NCBI RefSeq assembly: GCF_013812825.1
Contig: NZ_JACCSU010000068.1
Coordinates: forward strand, 77,845 to 141,844
DNA from: Sphingomonas sp.
GTDB taxonomy: Bacteria > Pseudomonadota > Alphaproteobacteria > Sphingomonadales > Sphingomonadaceae
Direction: 5' to 3'
DNA: 64,000 nucleotides
Shown: positions 5,671 to 32,708 of the stretch, piece by piece
Numbering within the stretch: the first letter of the stretch is position 1
How the letters are laid out: every line of letters starts with the position of its first letter
Notes under the pieces: generated by a model
Databases searched by the model: none
What the model saw: only the letters and a program-made list of their open reading frames with translations
Told to the model about the DNA's origin: nothing
Translations under genes and position numbers: made by a program

Positions 5671-7843
5671 CGGCGCTCTCCTTGGCTCTGACCCGCGGCG
5701 CATAGCGCATTTGCCCGCGAACGTCAGCCGCCCAGGGATGCCCGCCGATCCGCTCGGCGACCGTCTCGGCGCGCGGCTGCCGGCCGAGGTAGACCGCGAC
5801 CCCCCCGGTCCGGGCCAGCGAGTCGCGGTCGAGCTTGAGCCAGCGCGGAGTGCAGGCGCGCGGCAGCCAGCGGCTCGAAACGACGATGTCCGAGTTGGCA
5901 CAGGCGCGCACCAGGGCCTGCCACTCGATCGACTGCGCGGAGCGCGTCGCGAGGATCTGCCAGCGCCGCTCACCGCGGTCGAGCAGCGCGATGCAGCTGT
6001 CGCGCGAGCAGGAGGCGAACGGGCGCGACTCCAAGTCTTCCGGATCGTCGTCGAACCCGGCCGAATCGGCAAGGACGCTGCGGATGAAGTCGCCGCTGCG
6101 CTCGCGAAGCAGCAGCGGAGTGCCGTCGGCATCGACGACCGCCAGGTGACGCCCGTCGCCGGTGACCAGCAGGTCGGGGGTCGGCGACAGTGCGGCGCCT
6201 GCCGCGCCCAGCAGGATCGGGACGAGGCCCCACAACCGCGGGCGGCTGTTCCACAAGAACAGCCACAGTCCGCCGGCGACCATCATGCCCAGCGCCCAGG
6301 GAGGCATCGCCGCCATCATCACGATCGCACCCCGCGTGTTGGCGACTAGGTGCGCGAGGCCAAGCAGCAGGTCCAGCGACAGCCCGGTCAGCCACCACAA
6401 GGGCGCCCCCAGGCCGACGGCGTCGAGCAGCAGGGCAGCGGCTTCGAGCGGCATGATGACGAAGGTGGTGAGCGGGATGGCGATGATGTTCGCGGCGACC
6501 CCATACAGGCCGGACTTGTGGAAATGGTAGAGCGCGATCGGAATCAGCGCGAATTCCACCGCGAGCCCGGTGGCGATCAAGGCCAGCACTGCCCGTCCCA
6601 CCCGCGCGAACAGCGCTTCGTCGCGCCGGTGGAACATGCTCCGCGCCCAGGCGGTCGAATGCAGCGCGATGATCGAGGCGACGGCGGCGAAGCTGAACTG
6701 GAAGCTGGCTCCGGCGAGCGATTCGGGGCGGAACAGCAGGACCAGCAGCGCCCCGACCGCGAGCGTACGCAGGCTGATCGCGTCGCGGCCGAGCGCGATT
6801 CCAGCGAGAACCAGCAGCGCCGCGACGCAGCTTCTTACCGTCGGCACCTGGGCGCCGGTCAGAAGCGTGTAGCCGATGCCGGTCAGAGCGCCGACTCCCG
6901 CGGCGACCAGAATCAGGTTGAAGCGCAGCGCGACGCGCTCGCTCAGCGCCAGCAGCTTGAGGGTCAGGAGCATCGCCGCCCCGACCGCGGCGGCGATGTG
7001 CAGGCCGCTGACCGACAGCAGGTGCGTGAGGCCGCTTCGCCGCATCGCCTCGGCATCGGGCTCGCGGACGCTGTTCTGGTCCCCGGTGACGAGCGCGACG
7101 GCGATCCCTCCGCTGGGACCGGGCAGCCGCTCTCGAACGTGGCGGCCGAGCCGCTCGCGGGCCGCGTCGAGGCCGGTTTCTCCCTTGGGCTCGACGACGG
7201 TCACGGGCCCAAGCGCCCGACCGACGCCGCCGATGCCCTTGAACCAGGCATCGCGCGCGAAGTCGTAGCCCCCCGGCAGCGCCATCGGCGGCGGTGGCGC
7301 CAGCCGGGCGCGCAACTGCAGCTCGGCGCCCCTGGCGATGCCCTTGGGAGCCGCGTCCTGCTTGATCGACACCCGCACCCGCGGCGGCAGCGCCGGATCG
7401 GCGGGAGCGAGGGTCAGCCTAAGGTCGCCCTTGGCGACCCGGGTCTCGACCCGTTCGACCTTCGCCCGGAACTCGGTGACCAGCGGCCGCTCGAGCCGCG
7501 GCGCGGCGACATAGTGCGAGCGCGCCCAGACCAGCGAGCAGCCGAGCATCATCGCCAGCCCGAACCAGCCGGCCGCCCGCTCGGCCCGCCCGCCCCGCGA
7601 TGCGAAGCCGGCGATCGCCAGACCGGCGCTCAGGCACAGGAACGCCGCCCAGTGCCGCGGCTGCCCGAGCAGGAACCAGGCGGCGATGCCGGCGCCGAAG
7701 CCGACCACGAACCACGGCGGCAGCTGCCCGCGCTCGCGCTCGAGGAATGCCTCGACGCTTTCGCGCAAGCCGCCGAAACGCGTCTCCCAGAACCGCCGAG
7801 CCCGCTGTGGAAGAGGCGCACCCGCTATGTTAGGGGCGCTCAT
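5645..7843 (-). CDS. comEC: ComEC/Rec2 competence protein
   Basis: Multi-TM protein with GLTHLLSVSGLH and SFQFSF motifs plus a DUF4131-like region; divergent from gltX. Start uncertain (7843 or 7852). Confidence 0.92.
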   Translation of the reverse strand: MSAPNIAGAPLPQRARRFWETRFGGLRESVEAFLERERGQLPPWFVVGFGAGIAAWFLLGQPRHWAAFLCLSAGLAIAGFASRGGRAERAAGWFGLAMMLGCSLVWARSHYVAAPRLERPLVTEFRAKVERVETRVAKGDLRLTLAPADPALPPRVRVSIKQDAAPKGIARGAELQLRARLAPPPPMALPGGYDFARDAWFKGIGGVGRALGPVTVVEPKGETGLDAARERLGRHVRERLPGPSGGIAVALVTGDQNSVREPDAEAMRRSGLTHLLSVSGLHIAAAVGAAMLLTLKLLALSERVALRFNLILVAAGVGALTGIGYTLLTGAQVPTVRSCVAALLVLAGIALGRDAISLRTLAVGALLVLLFRPESLAGASFQFSFAAVASIIALHSTAWARSMFHRRDEALFARVGRAVLALIATGLAVEFALIPIALYHFHKSGLYGVAANIIAIPLTTFVIMPLEAAALLLDAVGLGAPLWWLTGLSLDLLLGLAHLVANTRGAIVMMAAMPPWALGMMVAGGLWLFLWNSRPRLWGLVPILLGAAGAALSPTPDLLVTGDGRHLAVVDADGTPLLLRERSGDFIRSVLADSAGFDDDPEDLESRPFASCSRDSCIALLDRGERRWQILATRSAQSIEWQALVRACANSDIVVSSRWLPRACTPRWLKLDRDSLARTGGVAVYLGRQPRAETVAERIGGHPWAADVRGQMRYAPRVRAKESADAPIRDRT

Positions 7844-26480: not shown

Positions 26481-27535
26481 GAGCCAACTCCATAGCGGGT
26501 AAGCATCAGCCAGCTCGAAACGACGACGACCGATGTGATGCTGAGCGGCAGGAAGATCTTCCAGCCGAGCCGCATCAGCTGGTCGTAGCGGTAGCGCGGC
26601 ATGGTCGCTCGAACCCAGCTGAAGACGAAGAAGAAGAACAGCATCTTGCCGAACAGCCAGAAGATCCCGGGGATATCGAACCAGGGAATGAGGTCGACGT
26701 TGAGCGGCGGGAGGAAGCCGCCCCAGAACAGGATCGCGTTCAAGGCGCACATCAGGATGACGTTGCCGTACTCGCCGAGCCAGAAGAGCGCGAAGCTCAT
26801 CGACGAATATTCGGTCTGGAAGCCGGCGACGAGCTCGCTCTCCGCCTCGGTCAGGTCAAACGGAGTGCGGAAGGTCTCGGCCATCGAACTGATCAGGAAA
26901 ACAACAGCCATCGGGAACAGCAGGGGATTGAAGCCGAAGCCGTTCAGCAAGCCGAACACGTGACCTTGCTGCGCAAGCACGATCGCGCTCAGGTTGAACG
27001 TATTGGTGTAGAGCACGACGCTGATCAGAACGAAGCCGATCGACACTTCGTAGCTGACCATTTGCGCCGCCGCTCGAAGCGCCGAGAAAAAAGGATATTT
27101 GGAGTTGGACGCCCAGCCGGCGACGATGACGCCGTAAACGCCCAGCGACGACGCGGCGAGCACGTAGAGCAAGCCGACGTTGATGTCGGCGAGCACCACT
27201 CCCACGTCGAACGGAATCACCGCCCAGACGATCAGCGCGACGGTGAAACTCACGACCGGCGCGATCAGGAACAGCCCCTTGTTGGCGCTGGTCGGGATGA
27301 TGGTTTCCTTGAGGAACACCTTCAGACCGTCGGCGAAGCTTTGCAGCAGCCCCCAGGGACCAACGACGTTGGGCCCGCGGCGAAGCGCGATCGCCGCCCA
27401 GATCTTGCGGTCCGCATAGATGATCATCGCCACCGCGAGCATCAGCGGGAAGGCGATCAGGAGGATTCCGGCGATGGTCGCGAAGAACCACGACCATTCG
27501 TAGGTGAAGCCCCAGTTCTGGAACGATTCGGTCAT
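26477..27535 (-). CDS. nuoH: NADH-quinone oxidoreductase subunit H
   Basis: [21 protein letters not shown] and [15 protein letters not shown] motifs; ATG 27535. Confidence 0.97.
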
Positions 27536-29577
27536 TCCGCCGCCTCGCGGAATTCGCGGCCGTGGAGCAGCTCCTCCGAGCAGCGGCGCATGGTCGGGCT
27601 CGCCCGGCAGATCGCGTTGGTCAGGTAGAAATCGGCGATCGGATAGCGCACCGCACCCTCGGCCTTCGAGTCGAGCTCCGGCGGTGCCCAGGGCAGATCG
27701 ATGAGGCCGTCGCGGCCGAGCTCGGGATAGTCGGCAATCATCGAGTCCCGAAGCTGGTCGAGGCTGTCGAACGGAAGCGCTTGGCCGGCCAGCTCGCTGA
27801 CTGCCCGCAAGATCGCCCAGTCCTCGCGCGCTTCGCCGGGCGGGAACACCGCGCGCTCGCCGCGCTGAACGCGGCCTTCGAGACTGACGTAGGTGCCGTG
27901 CTTCTCGGCGTAGGCCGCGCCGGGCAGAACGAGGTCGGCGCTGCTCGCGCCGACATCGCCGTGGTGGCCGATGTAGACCTTGAACGCGCCCTTGAAGCGG
28001 TCGGCCGCGACTTCGTCGGCCCCGAGCAGAAACACCATTTGCGGCTCGGCGGCCTCGATGTCGGCGATTCCTCCGGGCTGCGCGTAGCCGAGGATCAGCC
28101 CCGCCATTCGCGACGCCGCGGTGTGGATGACGTTGAAGCCGTTCCAGGCAGCCTGTCCTGAGCTTGTCGAAGGGCGGACGAGCCTGAGCGGCCCGGCCAA
28201 GGCGAGCGCGGCGCCCAGGGCATTGCCGGCGAGCGCCCCCGGCCCGAGGATCAGCGCCGGGCGCTCCGCCGCTTCGAAGGCTTCCGACACTCCCTTTGGA
28301 ATCTTGCCCAGCAGCTTGAGATCGTTGCCGATCCACTCGACTCGCATCCCGAGGTCGACTTCCGGCCCGATGGCGAAAATCCTCGCGCCCTTGCGCGCCG
28401 CCTTGCGCAATCGGGTGTTGATCAGCGGCGCTTCCCAGCGCGGGTTGGTGCCGACCAGAAGCACCGCGTCGGCGCTCTCGATCCCGGCAATCGTCGAGTT
28501 GAACGCGACCGCCGACAGGCTCGAAATGTCATAAGCAAGGCCGGTCTGGCGGCCTTCGAGCAGGGCCGACCCCTGCGCTTCGAGCAGCTTTTTGGCCGCA
28601 TACATGGTTTCGGCGTCGAGCAGGTCGCCGGCGATCGCCGCGACGCCGGCGCCCGCTTTCTTCAGCCGCGCGGCGAAGACATCGAGCGCCTCGCCCCAGT
28701 CGGCTTCGCGCAGCTTGCCCGCGCCCTCGCCTTCTTTTGGGCGCACCCACGGCCGGTCGAGGCGATTGCGCACCAGGGCATCGACATGATGGCGCGTCTT
28801 GTCGTGGATCCACTCCTCGTTCACGTCCTCGTTGATGCGCGGCAGAATGCGCATCACCTGACGCTGGCGGACGTCCAGACGGATGTTGCTTCCAACTGCG
28901 TCCATGACGTCGATCGCCGGCACCCGGCGCAGCTCCCACGGACGGCTCTCAAAAATCTGCGGCTTCTGAAGCAGCGCCCCGACCGGGCAGATGTCGGCCA
29001 GGTTGCCGGCCAGCTCGCTGGTCACTGCGCGCTCGAGGTAGGATGTGATCTGCGCGTCCTCGCCGCGGTACAGCATGCCGAGCTCCGGCTCGCCCGCGAC
29101 CTCCTCGGCAAAACGGACGCAGCGGGTGCACTGGATGCAGCGAGTCATCGAGGTCTTGATGACCGGGCCCATATATTTGTCGTCGATCGCCCGCTTGTTC
29201 TCCTCGAACCGCGAGAAGCTGCGGCCGTAGGCCATCGCCTGGTCCTGGAGGTCGCATTCGCCGCCCTGGTCGCAGATCGGACAGTCGAGCGGGTGGTTGA
29301 TGAGCAGGAACTCCATCACCCCCTCGCGCGCCTTTTTCACCATCGCGGTATCCGTGCGGATCGTCTGGCCGTCGGCGGCGGGCAGAGCGCAGCTCGCCTG
29401 CGGCTTTGGCGGACCCGGAGCGACTTCGACCAGGCACATCCGGCAATTGCCGGCGATCGACAGCCGCTCGTGATAGCAGAAGCGCGGGATCTCCTTGCCG
29501 GCAAGCTCGCACGCCTGCAGTACGGTCACGCCCTGCGGGACCTCGAGCTCGATGCCGTCGACGGTAACCTTTGGCAT
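27532..29577 (-). CDS. nuoG: NADH-quinone oxidoreductase subunit G
   Basis: [36 protein letters not shown] and RCIQCTRC motifs. Confidence 0.98.
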
Positions 29578-30197
29578 TATCTCGCCGCCGTCGAATTGTG
29601 TTGAGCGAGGCGATTGGCGCCAAGCGCGAGCAATGCGCGCAACGCTTCACGGGTGAAGCGCGACTTGCTGTTGGCCGGAAGGCATCCGCCGAGCACCGGG
29701 CCAAGCGCGACGATGGCGTCATATTCGGCGGCTGTCGCGGGATCCGTCTTGAGCAGCCGAGCAACCGCTGCCGCGTCTTTCCGCACCGCGCAGAACGCCA
29801 TCAGCTCGCCGGCATTGCGCGCCTCGATGGCGGGCAGCGCCGGGTTGTACCCCGTGCGCGCGGCCAGATCGTCGAGGCTTCCGTCGCGGCGCAGCAGGCC
29901 TTCTGCAAGCGCACCGCCCCACAGCAACGTGCCCGACGAATAGGCTCCCCTGGGAACGCTGACGCCAGGGCACGGAGCAGGCCGGTTGACCAGCTTGCGC
30001 ATTTCCTTCCCGTAGGCGCGATCGCGGAAATCCGAGTCGAGCAGCGCGCGCACCGCGACCGGGCGCTCGATGGCAACGCATCGCCCGTAGGCGTGCAGCG
30101 CGCGCAGAGCCTTGGGGCTGGACTTCCCGCCGATTTCCGCTTCCGAGGGTGCGGACGCGGCCATGGCAATCGCGACGATAAGCGAGACGAGCATCAT
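29577..30197 (-). CDS. Secreted hypothetical protein with two Cys-containing internal repeats
   Basis: Signal-peptide-like N-terminus and four Cys; overlaps both neighbours (ATGA upstream, TAATG with nuoG). Confidence 0.75.
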   Translation of the reverse strand: MMLVSLIVAIAMAASAPSEAEIGGKSSPKALRALHAYGRCVAIERPVAVRALLDSDFRDRAYGKEMRKLVNRPAPCPGVSVPRGAYSSGTLLWGGALAEGLLRRDGSLDDLAARTGYNPALPAIEARNAGELMAFCAVRKDAAAVARLLKTDPATAAEYDAIVALGPVLGGCLPANSKSRFTREALRALLALGANRLAQHNSTAAR

Positions 30198-30328
30198 TCC
30201 CGATCCTCACTCTCGTCTTCATCGCGGCGGTGCTCGATGTGGGTGACGCGCGGGCCCGACGGGCGCATCAGCATCATCACCGCTACGACGAGCACGAGCA
30301 GCAAGGCGAGGATGATCACGAAGCGCAT
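30194..30328 (-). CDS. 44-aa single-TM microprotein
   Basis: Not in the ORF track. [44 protein letters not shown]; TGATG and ATGA overlaps with its neighbours; GC3-biased codons. Confidence 0.75.
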   Translation of the reverse strand: MRFVIILALLLVLVVAVMMLMRPSGPRVTHIEHRRDEDESEDRE

Positions 30329-30447
30329 CAGCCGCGCTCCGGCCCGCGGGCACGCGGGCGAAGGAGCTGGGCGAGCCGATAGGCGGCGACGGCCGCGAGG
30401 ATGAAGGCGACGAGCGCAAACGTCGCGAGGCCGGAATGGGAAGTCAT
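30328..30447 (-). CDS. 39-aa single-TM microprotein
   Basis: [39 protein letters not shown]; ATGA overlap with the nuoF stop. Confidence 0.6.
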
Positions 30448-31754
30448 TCGGCGGCCTCCAGCATGGTGCGCCCGGCGCGCTCGGCGATTCGGCGCTCGAG
30501 CTCGGGCCGGAAGTGGCGGATCAGGCCCTGGATCGGCCAGGCCGCGGCGTCGCCCAGAGCGCAGATCGTGTGGCCCTCGACCTGCTTGGTGACGTCGAGC
30601 AATTTGTCGATCGTCTCGACGGTCGCGTCGCCCTCGCGCAGGCGCTCCATGGTCCGCCACATCCAGCCGGTGCCCTCGCGGCACGGAGTGCACTGGCCGC
30701 AGCTCTCGTGCTTGTAGAAGTAGGAGATGCGGGCGATCGCACGGACGATGTCGGTCGATTTGTCCATGACCGTCACCGCCGCGGTGCCAAGGCCGCTGCC
30801 GAGATCCTTGAGCCCGTCGAAATCCATCGGCGCGTCGATGATCTCGTGCGCCGGGACCAGCGGCACCGAAGAGCCGCCGGGGATCACCGCGAGCAGATTG
30901 TCCCAGCCGCCGCGGACTCCGCCGCCGTGCAGCTCGATCAGTTCGCGGAAGCTGATCGACATCGATTCTTCGACCACGCACGGCGTGTTGATGTGGCCCG
31001 ACAGCTGGAACAGCTTGGTGCCGCTGTTGTTCTCGCGGCCGAAGCTCTTGAACCACTCGGCGCCGCGGCGAAGGATGGTCGGCACGACGGCGATCGATTC
31101 GACGTTGTTGACCGTGGTCGGGCAGCCGTAGAGGCCCGCGCCCGCGGGGAACGGCGGCTTCAAACGCGGAAAGCCCTTCTTGCCCTCGAGGCTTTCGAGC
31201 ATCGCGGTTTCTTCGCCGCAGATATAGGCGCCGGCGCCGCGGTGAACGAACAGGTCGAAGTCGTAGCCCGACCCGGCGACGTTCTTGCCGAGCAGGCCGG
31301 CCGAATAAGCGTCGGCGACGGCTTTCCTGAGCGCCTCGGTCTCGCGGACGAACTCGCCGCGGATGTAGATGTACCCGGCCCGGGCGCGCATCGCGAAGCC
31401 GGCGATCAACGAGCCCTCGATCAATTTGTGCGGGTCGTGGCGGATGATCTCGCGGTCTTTGCACGATCCCGGCTCGGATTCGTCGGCATTGACGACCAGG
31501 AAATTGGGTTTCCCGGGCTTGGGCTCCTTGGGCATGAAGCCCCATTTCATGCCGGTCGGGAAGCCGGCGCCGCCACGGCCGCGAAGGCCGCTCTCCTTGA
31601 TGATGTCGATGATCGGGTCCTGGCCCAGCTGCATCAATTTGGCGGTGTCGTCCCAATCGCCGCGCTGCTTCGCGGCTTTCAGGTCGGGCGACTGGAAGCC
31701 GTAGACGTTGGTGAAGATGCGGTCCTTGTCCGCAAGAGGCCCGGTGCTGGTCAC
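30444..31754 (-). CDS. nuoF: NADH-quinone oxidoreductase subunit F
   Basis: [30 protein letters not shown] and [12 protein letters not shown] motifs; GTG start. Confidence 0.98.
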
Positions 31755-31891
31755 GCGCCGATGCCCCCGGTCATGAAGTAGAAGACGGCCAGCAGGAGCA
31801 GCCCGAGCACGACGAATTTGATCATTCCGCTGATGAACTTGAACACCAGGAAGGCACCCACGACGGTGAGGATGATGGCGAGGATCTCCAT
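31751..31891 (-). CDS. 46-aa hydrophobic hairpin microprotein
   Basis: Not in the ORF track. [46 protein letters not shown]; TGATG and GTGA overlaps. Confidence 0.75.
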
Positions 31892-32043
31892 CAGCTTTTC
31901 GGGCTCTCGAGCAGCTTCATTCCGCCCCAGACCAGCAAGCCGGCGGCGGCGACCGCCAGCAGCAGGCCGACCACGCCTTTGACGATCTTCCAGGCGACGA
32001 TGATCAACAGGATCGCGACGACGATCTTGGCGATGTTCTTCAT
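31891..32043 (-). CDS. 50-aa hydrophobic hairpin microprotein
   Basis: [50 protein letters not shown]; ATGA overlap with the nuoE stop. Confidence 0.75.
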
Positions 32044-32708
32044 GCCCACTGCCCCCGATAGTCGTAGTTGCGCTCGGCCATTTTCTTGAGGCTGGTCGGA
32101 CCGCCGACCGGGCAGCTGGTCTGGCGCTCGATCTGCGGGCCCGGCCGGGGCGTTTCGCCGCGGGCGAGTGCGTCGAGGATCGCGGTCATGCTTTCCCCGG
32201 TCAGGTCCTCGTAATTGTCGTCGTTGATCTGGACCATCGGCGCATTGGCGCAGGCGCCGAGGCATTCGACCTCCGAGAGCGTGAACAGCTCGTCGTCGGT
32301 GGTCGCGCCCCTCCGGAGCCCACGCTGGTAGCAGGCGTCGAGCAAATCGTCGGACCCGCGCAACATGCACGGGGTCGTCCCGCACACCTGGACGTGGAAG
32401 CGGCCGACCGGGACAAGGTTGAACATGGTGTAGAAGGTCGCGACCTCGAGCACGCGGATGATCGGCATGCCGAGCTCGGCGGCGACGAACTCCATCACCG
32501 GGAGCGGCATCCAGCCCTGGGTATTGGTTTCGGCACCGACCTGCCGCTGGGCGAGATCGAGCAGCGGGATCACCGCCGACTGCTGCCGGCCTTCGGGATA
32601 GCGCGCGACGATTTCCGCCACCGCCTTGCGGTTGGCGTCGGTCCACGCAAAGCCGGACCAGCGCGCGCGCTGGTCGGCGTCGTCGAGGATGGAGGCTTGC
32701 CCGGCCAT
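32040..32708 (-). CDS. nuoE: NADH-quinone oxidoreductase subunit E
   Basis: EVATFYTMF, VCGTTPCMLRG and EVECLGACANAP 2Fe-2S motifs. Confidence 0.97.
   Translation of the reverse strand: MAGQASILDDADQRARWSGFAWTDANRKAVAEIVARYPEGRQQSAVIPLLDLAQRQVGAETNTQGWMPLPVMEFVAAELGMPIIRVLEVATFYTMFNLVPVGRFHVQVCGTTPCMLRGSDDLLDACYQRGLRRGATTDDELFTLSEVECLGACANAPMVQINDDNYEDLTGESMTAILDALARGETPRPGPQIERQTSCPVGGPTSLKKMAERNYDYRGQWA

Follow-up and report, generated by a model that had tools for sequence, protein, structure and literature searches.

A conserved membrane microprotein and a probable deletion remnant between nuoF and nuoG in the complex I operon of a Sphingomonas

Two short open reading frames of 39 and 44 codons, orf39 and orf44, lie one behind the other after nuoF in the complex I (nuo) operon of a Sphingomonas sp. 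orf44 is a member of a conserved, uncharacterised family of membrane microproteins which is tied to the slot between nuoF and nuoG. The reading that we prefer, with a probability of about 0.75, is that orf44 is a real gene inherited vertically and that orf39 is the stub of a deleted gene which encoded a secreted protein with four cysteines.

Gene organisation between nuoE and nuoG

The window, that is the whole stretch of 64,000 nucleotides analysed here, comes from a soil-metagenome MAG, and 98% of its sampled words are found in one DNA run. The search for RNA or Ribo-seq runs with the window sequence returned DNA metagenomes only. The exact sequences of orf39 and orf44 are already present in a public predicted-protein collection, with NCBI nr as the source of orf44.

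All the genes discussed below are on the minus strand. nuoF (30444-31754) encodes a protein of 436 aa with the Pfam domains Complex1_51K, SLBB_2 and NADH_4Fe-4S; its 3' end, CTGGAGGCCGCCGAATGA, provides the GGAGG Shine-Dalgarno sequence and the stop codon which overlaps the next start. It is followed by orf39 (30328-30447, 39 aa), whose ATG overlaps the TGA of nuoF (ATGA, 30444-30447), by orf44 (30194-30328, 44 aa), whose ATG overlaps the TGA of orf39 (TGATG, 30326-30330), and by orf206 (29577-30197, 206 aa), which is coupled to orf44 by an ATGA (30194-30197) and to nuoG by a TAATG. nuoG itself (27532-29577) encodes 681 aa with the Pfam domains Molybdopterin, Fer4_Nqo3 and NADH-G_4Fe-4S_3, among others. 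Two further small frames, orf50 and orf46 (31751-32043), are found between nuoE and nuoF, and the whole forms an unbroken chain with overlaps of 1 or 4 nt (nuoE-orf50-orf46-nuoF-orf39-orf44-orf206-nuoG). The search of Rfam over positions 29000-32500 gave no relevant match.

The sequence-only reading of this DNA described the two microORFs as filling the gap exactly through ATGA, TGATG and ATGA overlaps, and gave orf39 a basic tail and orf44 an acidic tail. The three overlaps are confirmed when the minus strand is read, and the tails are as described in the translations. The gap is not filled by these two frames alone, since orf206 precedes nuoG: orf39 and orf44 account for 254 of its 866 bases, and the last ATGA, which had been taken as an overlap with nuoG, is made with the start of orf206. 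Both microORFs have a hydrophobic stretch, and their GC3 (0.82 for orf39 and 0.84 for orf44) can be compared to that of nuoF (0.90) and nuoG (0.86).

The orf44 family

The neighbourhood of nuoF was compared in 80 loci that encode close relatives of NuoF and come from Sphingomicrobium, Sphingomonas and Allosphingosinicella. Relatives of orf44 are detected by tblastn directly after nuoF in many of these loci, with identities of 71% (L001), 64% (L008), 63% (L002) and 60% (L019). An HMM of the family, built from 23 clear members (alignment A1), has matches in 36 of the 80 loci, each time inside the nuoF-nuoG gap and on the strand of the nuo genes. The start codon lies on the nuoF stop (ATGA) in 23 of 29 members, and in 20 of the 29 the frame ends 8 nt into nuoG (...GAC GAT GCC TAA over ATG CCT AAG). 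The conservation of the end of the tail (...DDA before the stop codon) is partly forced by the overlap with the start codon of nuoG and with its ribosome-binding site. Truncated copies of orf44-family genes also exist, in L036 and L037.

The same arrangement is found in independent assemblies, in which the microprotein is called as a gene (nuoC-D-E-(48-54 aa)-(46 aa)-nuoF-(44-48 aa)-[216 aa]-nuoG-H-I-J), and the position between nuoF and nuoG is also seen in metagenome and Logan contigs. A search with the single sequence of orf44 returned three close relatives only, none of which is the variant of runs X2-X5 described below. The profile search returned more than 1000 clusters at 90% identity, and 200 at 50%, almost all of 40-50 aa; those that bear a name are almost all called "hypothetical protein", and no Pfam domain is present in any of them.

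On a tree of NuoF with 86 scored loci, the presence or absence of the family requires just seven changes. The family is ancestral to one large clade, and several losses have followed. orf44 is missing from about half of the related genomes, and in some of them, as in L024 and L032, nuoF overlaps nuoG directly; orf44 is therefore dispensable for complex I as such. Cultured strains that carry a member of the family include Sphingomonas hankyongi SE220 (L015), S. segetis YJ09 (L018) and Sphingomonas sp. URHD0057 (L031).

Members of the family have 41-50 aa and consist of a short N-terminus, one transmembrane (TM) helix, the motif R-x-(S/G)-G-P-R-(V/I)-T-x-I-x-R and a charged, mostly acidic tail. 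T29 and I31 are invariant, and orf44, which scores 70.8 bits against the family HMM, carries both. AlphaFold2 predicts a helix for residues 2-21 (pLDDT 92) and an unstructured tail. According to the positive-inside rule, the basic motif and the tail would be cytoplasmic. There is no Pfam or NCBIfam model for the family; searches of Pfam, NCBIfam and PDB sequences gave nothing significant for orf44, orf39 or orf206, and a profile search of PDB sequences nothing below E=0.29.

The pairwise dN/dS of orf44 ranges from 0.14 to 0.5 for close pairs, and omega is 0.13 under a GY+F3X4 codon model, which indicates purifying selection. Indeed, the invariant positions are encoded by different synonymous codons, four for G25 and three for T29, and selection therefore acts on the peptide. 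These results bear on the possibility that neither frame is translated, both being open by chance in a GC-rich spacer. At 63-72% GC, frames that stay open for 40 codons are common, and all three frames of the same strand are open across the orf39 segment, but for orf44 this explanation is excluded by the conservation of the amino acids with synonymous turnover, by the omega of 0.13 and by hundreds of independent occurrences. We consider it extremely improbable for the pair.

Orphan status of orf39

orf39 is carried by a single genome. No relative was found at E<1e-3 in 80+13 related loci, and a search of 5.8 billion proteins, for which the query was lengthened by two upstream in-frame residues, returned only orf39 itself. 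Similarly, the exact DNA pattern of its 3' part has no match in JGI metagenomes. In the nearest relatives, whose NuoF is 92-95% identical (L001, L002 and L087-L089), and also in L093, orf44 begins directly at the nuoF stop; the architecture of L093 (nuoF-orf44-208 aa-nuoG) is that of the window minus orf39.

The frame begins with GGAGG-N7-ATG, in which the GGAGG lies inside nuoF. The probability that a frame of 39 codons is open at 72% GC is about 0.5, as estimated from simple base composition; the openness of orf39 is thus not improbable by chance and is in itself no evidence for a gene. The claim that both microORFs are real genes, for which tBLASTn conservation and dN/dS had been proposed as a check, stands for orf44, with its synteny, its matches in 36 of the 80 loci and its purifying selection, and fails for orf39, which has no homologue in any locus.

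Two other sources of orf39 were considered. The idea that it is a truncated paralogue of orf44 is unsupported: orf39 scores 3.3 bits on the HMM of the orf44 family, a value reached by about 1-2% of shuffled sequences, the pairwise comparison gives p of about 0.04, and no match to the family was found beyond hydrophobic composition. No internal DNA duplication that explains orf39 was found in the window.

The secreted four-cysteine family

The family of orf206 (alignment A3) is characterised by a signal peptide, four invariant cysteines (C40, C76, C136 and C172), an invariant arginine (R187) and a C-terminal helix with the sequence LRxxxAxxxYRL. All of these features are present in orf206. The AlphaFold2 model of orf206 is all-alpha (pLDDT 88.6), and a Foldseek search of the PDB with this model gave no match with E<1. 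The protein would thus be secreted and all-alpha, and probably a paralogue of the product of the gene from which orf39 derives. orf39 has only the n- and h-region of the signal peptide and the last 21 residues; the four cysteines and R187 are missing.

The four-cysteine genes come and go frequently, and their distribution requires 24 changes on the NuoF tree. orf44 often adjoins them, and it is present without any four-cysteine gene in 32 of the 83 loci having a complete nuoF-nuoG gap.

A probable origin of orf39 by in-frame deletion

The alignment of contigs from other metagenome runs (X2-X5) to the nuoF-orf39-orf44 region revealed two types of contigs. Those of type 1 match positions 30222-30398 at about 90% identity, i.e., codons 1-36 of orf44 and codons 17-39 of orf39. 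Those of type 2 match positions 30393-30520, i.e., the 3' end of nuoF and codons 1-18 of orf39. Both types diverge from the window at one point, and the two ranges overlap exactly by the hexanucleotide TCGCGG (30393-30398), a 6-bp microhomology which is common to both parental contexts and which would be the deletion junction.

The 5' piece of orf39 (30399-30447; codons 1-18, running into the junction) corresponds to the n- and h-region of a Sec-type signal peptide. Beyond the junction, type 2 contigs continue as ...FILAVAASAQAPDD (...AVAASAQAPDD), which has the appearance of a signal-peptide c-region with an A-x-A site. The 3' piece (30328-30392; codons 19-39 and the stop codon) would correspond to the last 21 codons of the parent, with the TGATG that couples it to orf44.

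In type 1 contigs, the frame of orf39 stays open upstream of the junction, and the reading ends in ...ERG before the stop codon. This upstream reading of 32 aa scores 12.0 bits on the C-terminus of the HMM of the orf206 family, a value that none of 5000 shuffled sequences reaches, and 8.4 bits when the most similar member of the family is left out. Residues 18-34 of orf39 align to positions 202-218 of the same HMM with a weak score (4.8 bits, reached by 21 of 5000 shuffled sequences; 4.1 bits without L048). The orf206-family gene which follows nuoF in L048 ends in ...FLRNAAGVAAYRLGQQIQPRGRK, and its C-terminus is similar to the 3' piece of orf39. In P0164, a similar C-terminus of the family (...YRLLAANTPPERG) is found directly before a homologue of orf44, and the order nuoF-DUF-orf44 is found in L033 and L031. 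No contig with the full parental gene was found: the two types of contigs are separate pieces, with loose ends of 30 nt. A mis-assembly across the 6-bp junction is unlikely, because positions 29441-30548 of the window recur unchanged in an independent Logan contig of the source run.

These comparisons of sequences suggest that orf39 is most likely the remnant of a secreted four-cysteine gene of the orf206 family, after an in-frame internal deletion. The order of the genes in the ancestor would have been nuoF-DUFa-orf44-DUFb(orf206)-nuoG, where DUFa is located between nuoF and orf44, as in L033. An in-frame deletion between two copies of TCGCGG would have removed the codons of DUFa between codon 18 and the last 21, leaving a stub that retains the start of the parent, 18 codons of its signal peptide, its last 21 codons and the stop that overlaps the ATG of orf44. 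The hydrophobic "TM" segment of orf39 would then be the h-region of the signal peptide joined to an Ala-rich C-terminal helix. The ATGA start, the TGATG stop and the GC3-biased frame of orf39 would all have been inherited from the parent gene, and the argument from coupling and codon bias for orf39 as a real gene would thereby be lost.

orf39 owns a strong start, and it is probably translated. The termination of its translation at the TGATG may matter only by keeping ribosomes delivered to orf44. The peptide need not have a function, and yet the remnant may have acquired one. orf39 could thus be a young functional microprotein, either an exapted membrane peptide or a coupling ORF which is needed for the expression of orf44. 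The perfect GGAGG-N7-ATG start has been kept, the frame ends exactly on the ATG of orf44, the deletion did not shift the reading frame, the peptide could enter the membrane by the hydrophobic stretch before its basic tail, and four of the eight differences to the related contigs in the 3' part fall at third codon positions. However, orf39 is known from a single genome, a deletion would be expected a priori to leave the frame intact in 1 of 3 cases, its start and stop come from the parent and did not evolve anew, and in the closest relatives, which have no orf39, orf44 is expressed directly from the nuoF stop. We hold a function of orf39 to be improbable.

Small proteins in nuo operons and in respiratory complexes

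Six unidentified reading frames (URFs), URF1-URF6, are known in the nuo/nqo operon of Paracoccus denitrificans, and two of them, URF2 and URF3, lie between NQO1 (nuoF) and NQO3 (nuoG). More generally, ORFs unrelated to the 14 core subunits have been described within the nuo operons of alphaproteobacteria since the 1990s, as illustrated by urf1-urf7 of Rhodobacter capsulatus (PMC4758237, PMC13066640, PMC9036352). The frames of the window resemble them in that they are non-core ORFs in the same orientation among the nuo genes, including in the nuoF-nuoG slot; the likeness is one of position. The URFs described so far are heterogeneous (urf7 is a SAM methyltransferase of 257 aa, and Urf1 a TM hairpin which may or may not be followed by a C-terminal domain), whereas orf44 is a single-pass peptide of 44 aa with its own motif. 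The orf44 family is thus an uncharacterised family in an already known type of location.

Urf1 (protein-3h or protein-O of Rhodovulum sulfidophilum and Dinoroseobacter shibae) is so far the one product of a nuo-operon URF to have been located, and it is found in the LH1-RC complex (PMC13066640). It resembles orf44 as a small membrane protein whose gene lies within the nuo operon, but it is a U-shaped hairpin of two helices, it belongs to LH1-RC, and its gene occupies a different slot, between nuoE and nuoF. Its analogues in the window are orf50 and orf46, not orf39 or orf44.

The proteins CydX (37 aa), CydH, CioY, CcoQ and KdpF are single-TM subunits which are encoded in the operon of a complex or beside it, and which bind to this complex and stabilise it (PMC12648545). 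orf44 resembles CydX, CcoQ and KdpF by its size, below 60 aa, by its one TM helix (predicted at residues 2-21) and by its place in the operon of a membrane complex. The differences are that the sequences are not similar, that the host enzyme is another one and that physical association was shown for those proteins, to which orf44 is likened by analogy.

Possible roles of orf44

The orf44 family usually starts on the stop of nuoF and ends inside nuoG, and translational coupling on the nuo mRNA would therefore yield the peptide in step with NuoF and NuoG. It would insert into the membrane with the N-terminus out and the C-terminus in, and the cytoplasmic GPRVTxIxR segment would bind a partner. 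This partner could be a membrane complex, most probably complex I, for which orf44 would be a small stabilising or assembly subunit, as are CydX, CcoQ and KdpF for their own complexes. By this analogy, complex I is the likeliest partner that we can name, and we propose it tentatively.

Single-TM supernumerary subunits of complex I-type enzymes include NdhP and NdhQ of cyanobacteria and plastids and, in mitochondria, NDUFA1, A3, B1, C1 and others. Like orf44, they are short single-pass peptides; they decorate the membrane arm. No homology to the known supernumerary subunits (NDUFS4, S6, A12, PIMT, Nqo15, Nqo16, NdhL-V and the mitochondrial single-TM subunits) was found at the curated cutoffs of Pfam and NCBIfam or among PDB chains. 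To our knowledge, none of the 18 subunits in the structure of Paracoccus complex I is encoded by an extra ORF among the nuo genes, a subject which the paper on this structure does not take up. This structure, at 2.3 Å, consists of the 14 core subunits plus NDUFS4, NDUFS6, NDUFA12 and PIMT, and none of the subunits modelled in it is of the short single-pass kind of NdhP, NdhQ and their mitochondrial counterparts (PMC11522691). That the orf44 family is a true single-TM supernumerary subunit, or a dedicated assembly factor, of the complex I of Sphingomonadaceae is a possibility that we regard as somewhat unlikely.

The stronger proposal of the sequence-only reading was that orf39 and orf44 are both lineage-specific single-TM accessory subunits of bacterial complex I. 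In its favour, the two frames show translational coupling to their neighbours in the nuo operon, operon-encoded single-TM respiratory subunits such as CydX, CcoQ and CioY are well known (PMC12648545), and orf44 is conserved and syntenic. However, orf39 is absent from all relatives and from the 5.8 billion proteins, and descent from a deleted gene accounts for its features; orf44 has no homology to known subunits, and the structure from Paracoccus adds just four proteins to the core (PMC11522691). We therefore judge this proposal very unlikely.

orf44 may instead be a real protein which acts outside complex I and merely uses the nuo mRNA with its strong expression, for example as a plug or stabiliser of another membrane complex, or as the membrane partner of the four-cysteine protein. 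Urf1 provides a precedent in Rhodobacterales, since it was seen by cryo-EM in LH1-RC (PMC13066640). About half of the related genomes have complex I without orf44, and orf44 is frequently beside four-cysteine genes. On the other hand, the family keeps strictly to its place between nuoF and nuoG, with most members coupled to both neighbours, and the 32 of 83 complete-gap loci that have orf44 without a four-cysteine gene show that it is independent of that partner. These sphingomonads are moreover not known to us to have LH1-RC. A role outside complex I is possible, if somewhat unlikely.

Significance

The 14-subunit complex I of bacteria gained about 30 extra subunits in mitochondria, many of which are single-pass, and only a few intermediates are known from bacteria. 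The orf44 family is a concrete candidate for such a gain of an accessory protein, as it is bound to the nuoF-nuoG slot, is under purifying selection and occurs in cultivable strains of Sphingomonas. If orf44 acts elsewhere, as Urf1 does, it would be merely another uncharacterised small membrane protein.

The case of orf39 shows how an in-frame deletion can leave a coupled, codon-biased microORF without evolutionary history, and it calls for caution in the annotation of small ORFs.

The nuoF-nuoG slot is a place of rapid turnover of small membrane ORFs and secreted proteins. If orf44 does serve complex I, as a single-TM subunit or in its assembly, it would be the first of its kind in a non-photosynthetic bacterium, and the slot would be a nursery where accessory proteins arise and vanish, with its microORFs, four-cysteine proteins, truncated duplicates and deletion stubs.

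Dual coding at the start of nuoG

The orf44 microprotein family, which sits between nuoF and nuoG, has a conserved ...DDA* end that overlaps the start of nuoG family-wide, GAC GAT GCC TAA being read over ATG CCT AAG (e.g., at 1885-1900 in L004 and 7427-7442 in L015, two of the loci fetched around close NuoF relatives). Because of this overlap, the conservation of the tail is in part a dual-coding constraint, shared with the M-P-K of NuoG and with the nuoG ribosome-binding site.

Sphingomonad-type nuo loci are also found under other taxon names, in L009 (a "Bacillota bacterium" MAG) and in P0076 ("Myxococcales bacterium", an entry from public protein collections). NuoF from these loci is 85-89% identical to that of the window, and in both cases a contig was probably assigned to the wrong bin in a public MAG.

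A secreted four-cysteine family

The 206-residue product of orf206 (29577-30197, minus strand) belongs to a secreted family with four invariant cysteines (C40, C76, C136 and C172), spaced as two pairs with 36 residues between the partners, and an invariant arginine, R187. The AlphaFold2 model is all-alpha and confident (pLDDT 88.6, pTM 0.83); the PDB gave no fold match at E<1, and neither Pfam nor NCBIfam has a model that matches orf206. Members often lie between nuoF and nuoG, in one to three tandem copies, and the family turns over fast, with 24 changes counted on the NuoF tree.

In P0164, a predicted protein of 172 aa taken from the 50%-identity library, the C-terminal half of a four-cysteine member (...YRLLAANTPPERG) runs in frame into an orf44-family peptide, through either a natural fusion or the loss of a stop codon.

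Small membrane ORFs in the nuo operon

Two micro-ORFs, orf50 (31891-32043) and orf46 (31751-31891), both on the minus strand, occupy the gap between nuoE and nuoF and are translationally coupled via ATGA, TGATG and GTGA overlaps. Each looks like a two-helix hairpin; orf46 is conserved in 48 of the 80 relatives and orf50 in 27. The pair fills the same slot of the nuo operon as Urf1, which in Rhodovulum and Dinoroseobacter encodes a protein located in LH1-RC (PMC13066640).

In one subclade, a second conserved family of small membrane ORFs (63-64 aa; ...HVSTT-TM-FGYRSPDRSPG...RERIED) lies between nuoF and the orf44 homologue (L010 and L036, both 7308-7502; L049, 7308-7499; L029, 3282-3476; L037, 1955-2149), and it too starts at the nuoF stop. 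Truncated tandem copies of the orf44 family (e.g., MSTIMLIALVIVFAVIFSMRRARRRGGPRP) stand directly upstream of the intact copy in L036 (7502-7594, 30 aa) and L037 (2149-2232, 27 aa); micro-ORF duplication and decay occur in this slot. Unrelated hydrophobic ORFs are also found there: a 74-aa two-TM family (L046, 7332-7556; L053, 7305-7529), a 54-aa ORF (L001, 7445-7609) and a 56-aa ORF (L023, 7460-7630). Small membrane ORFs appear to have a hotspot at the nuoF-nuoG junction.
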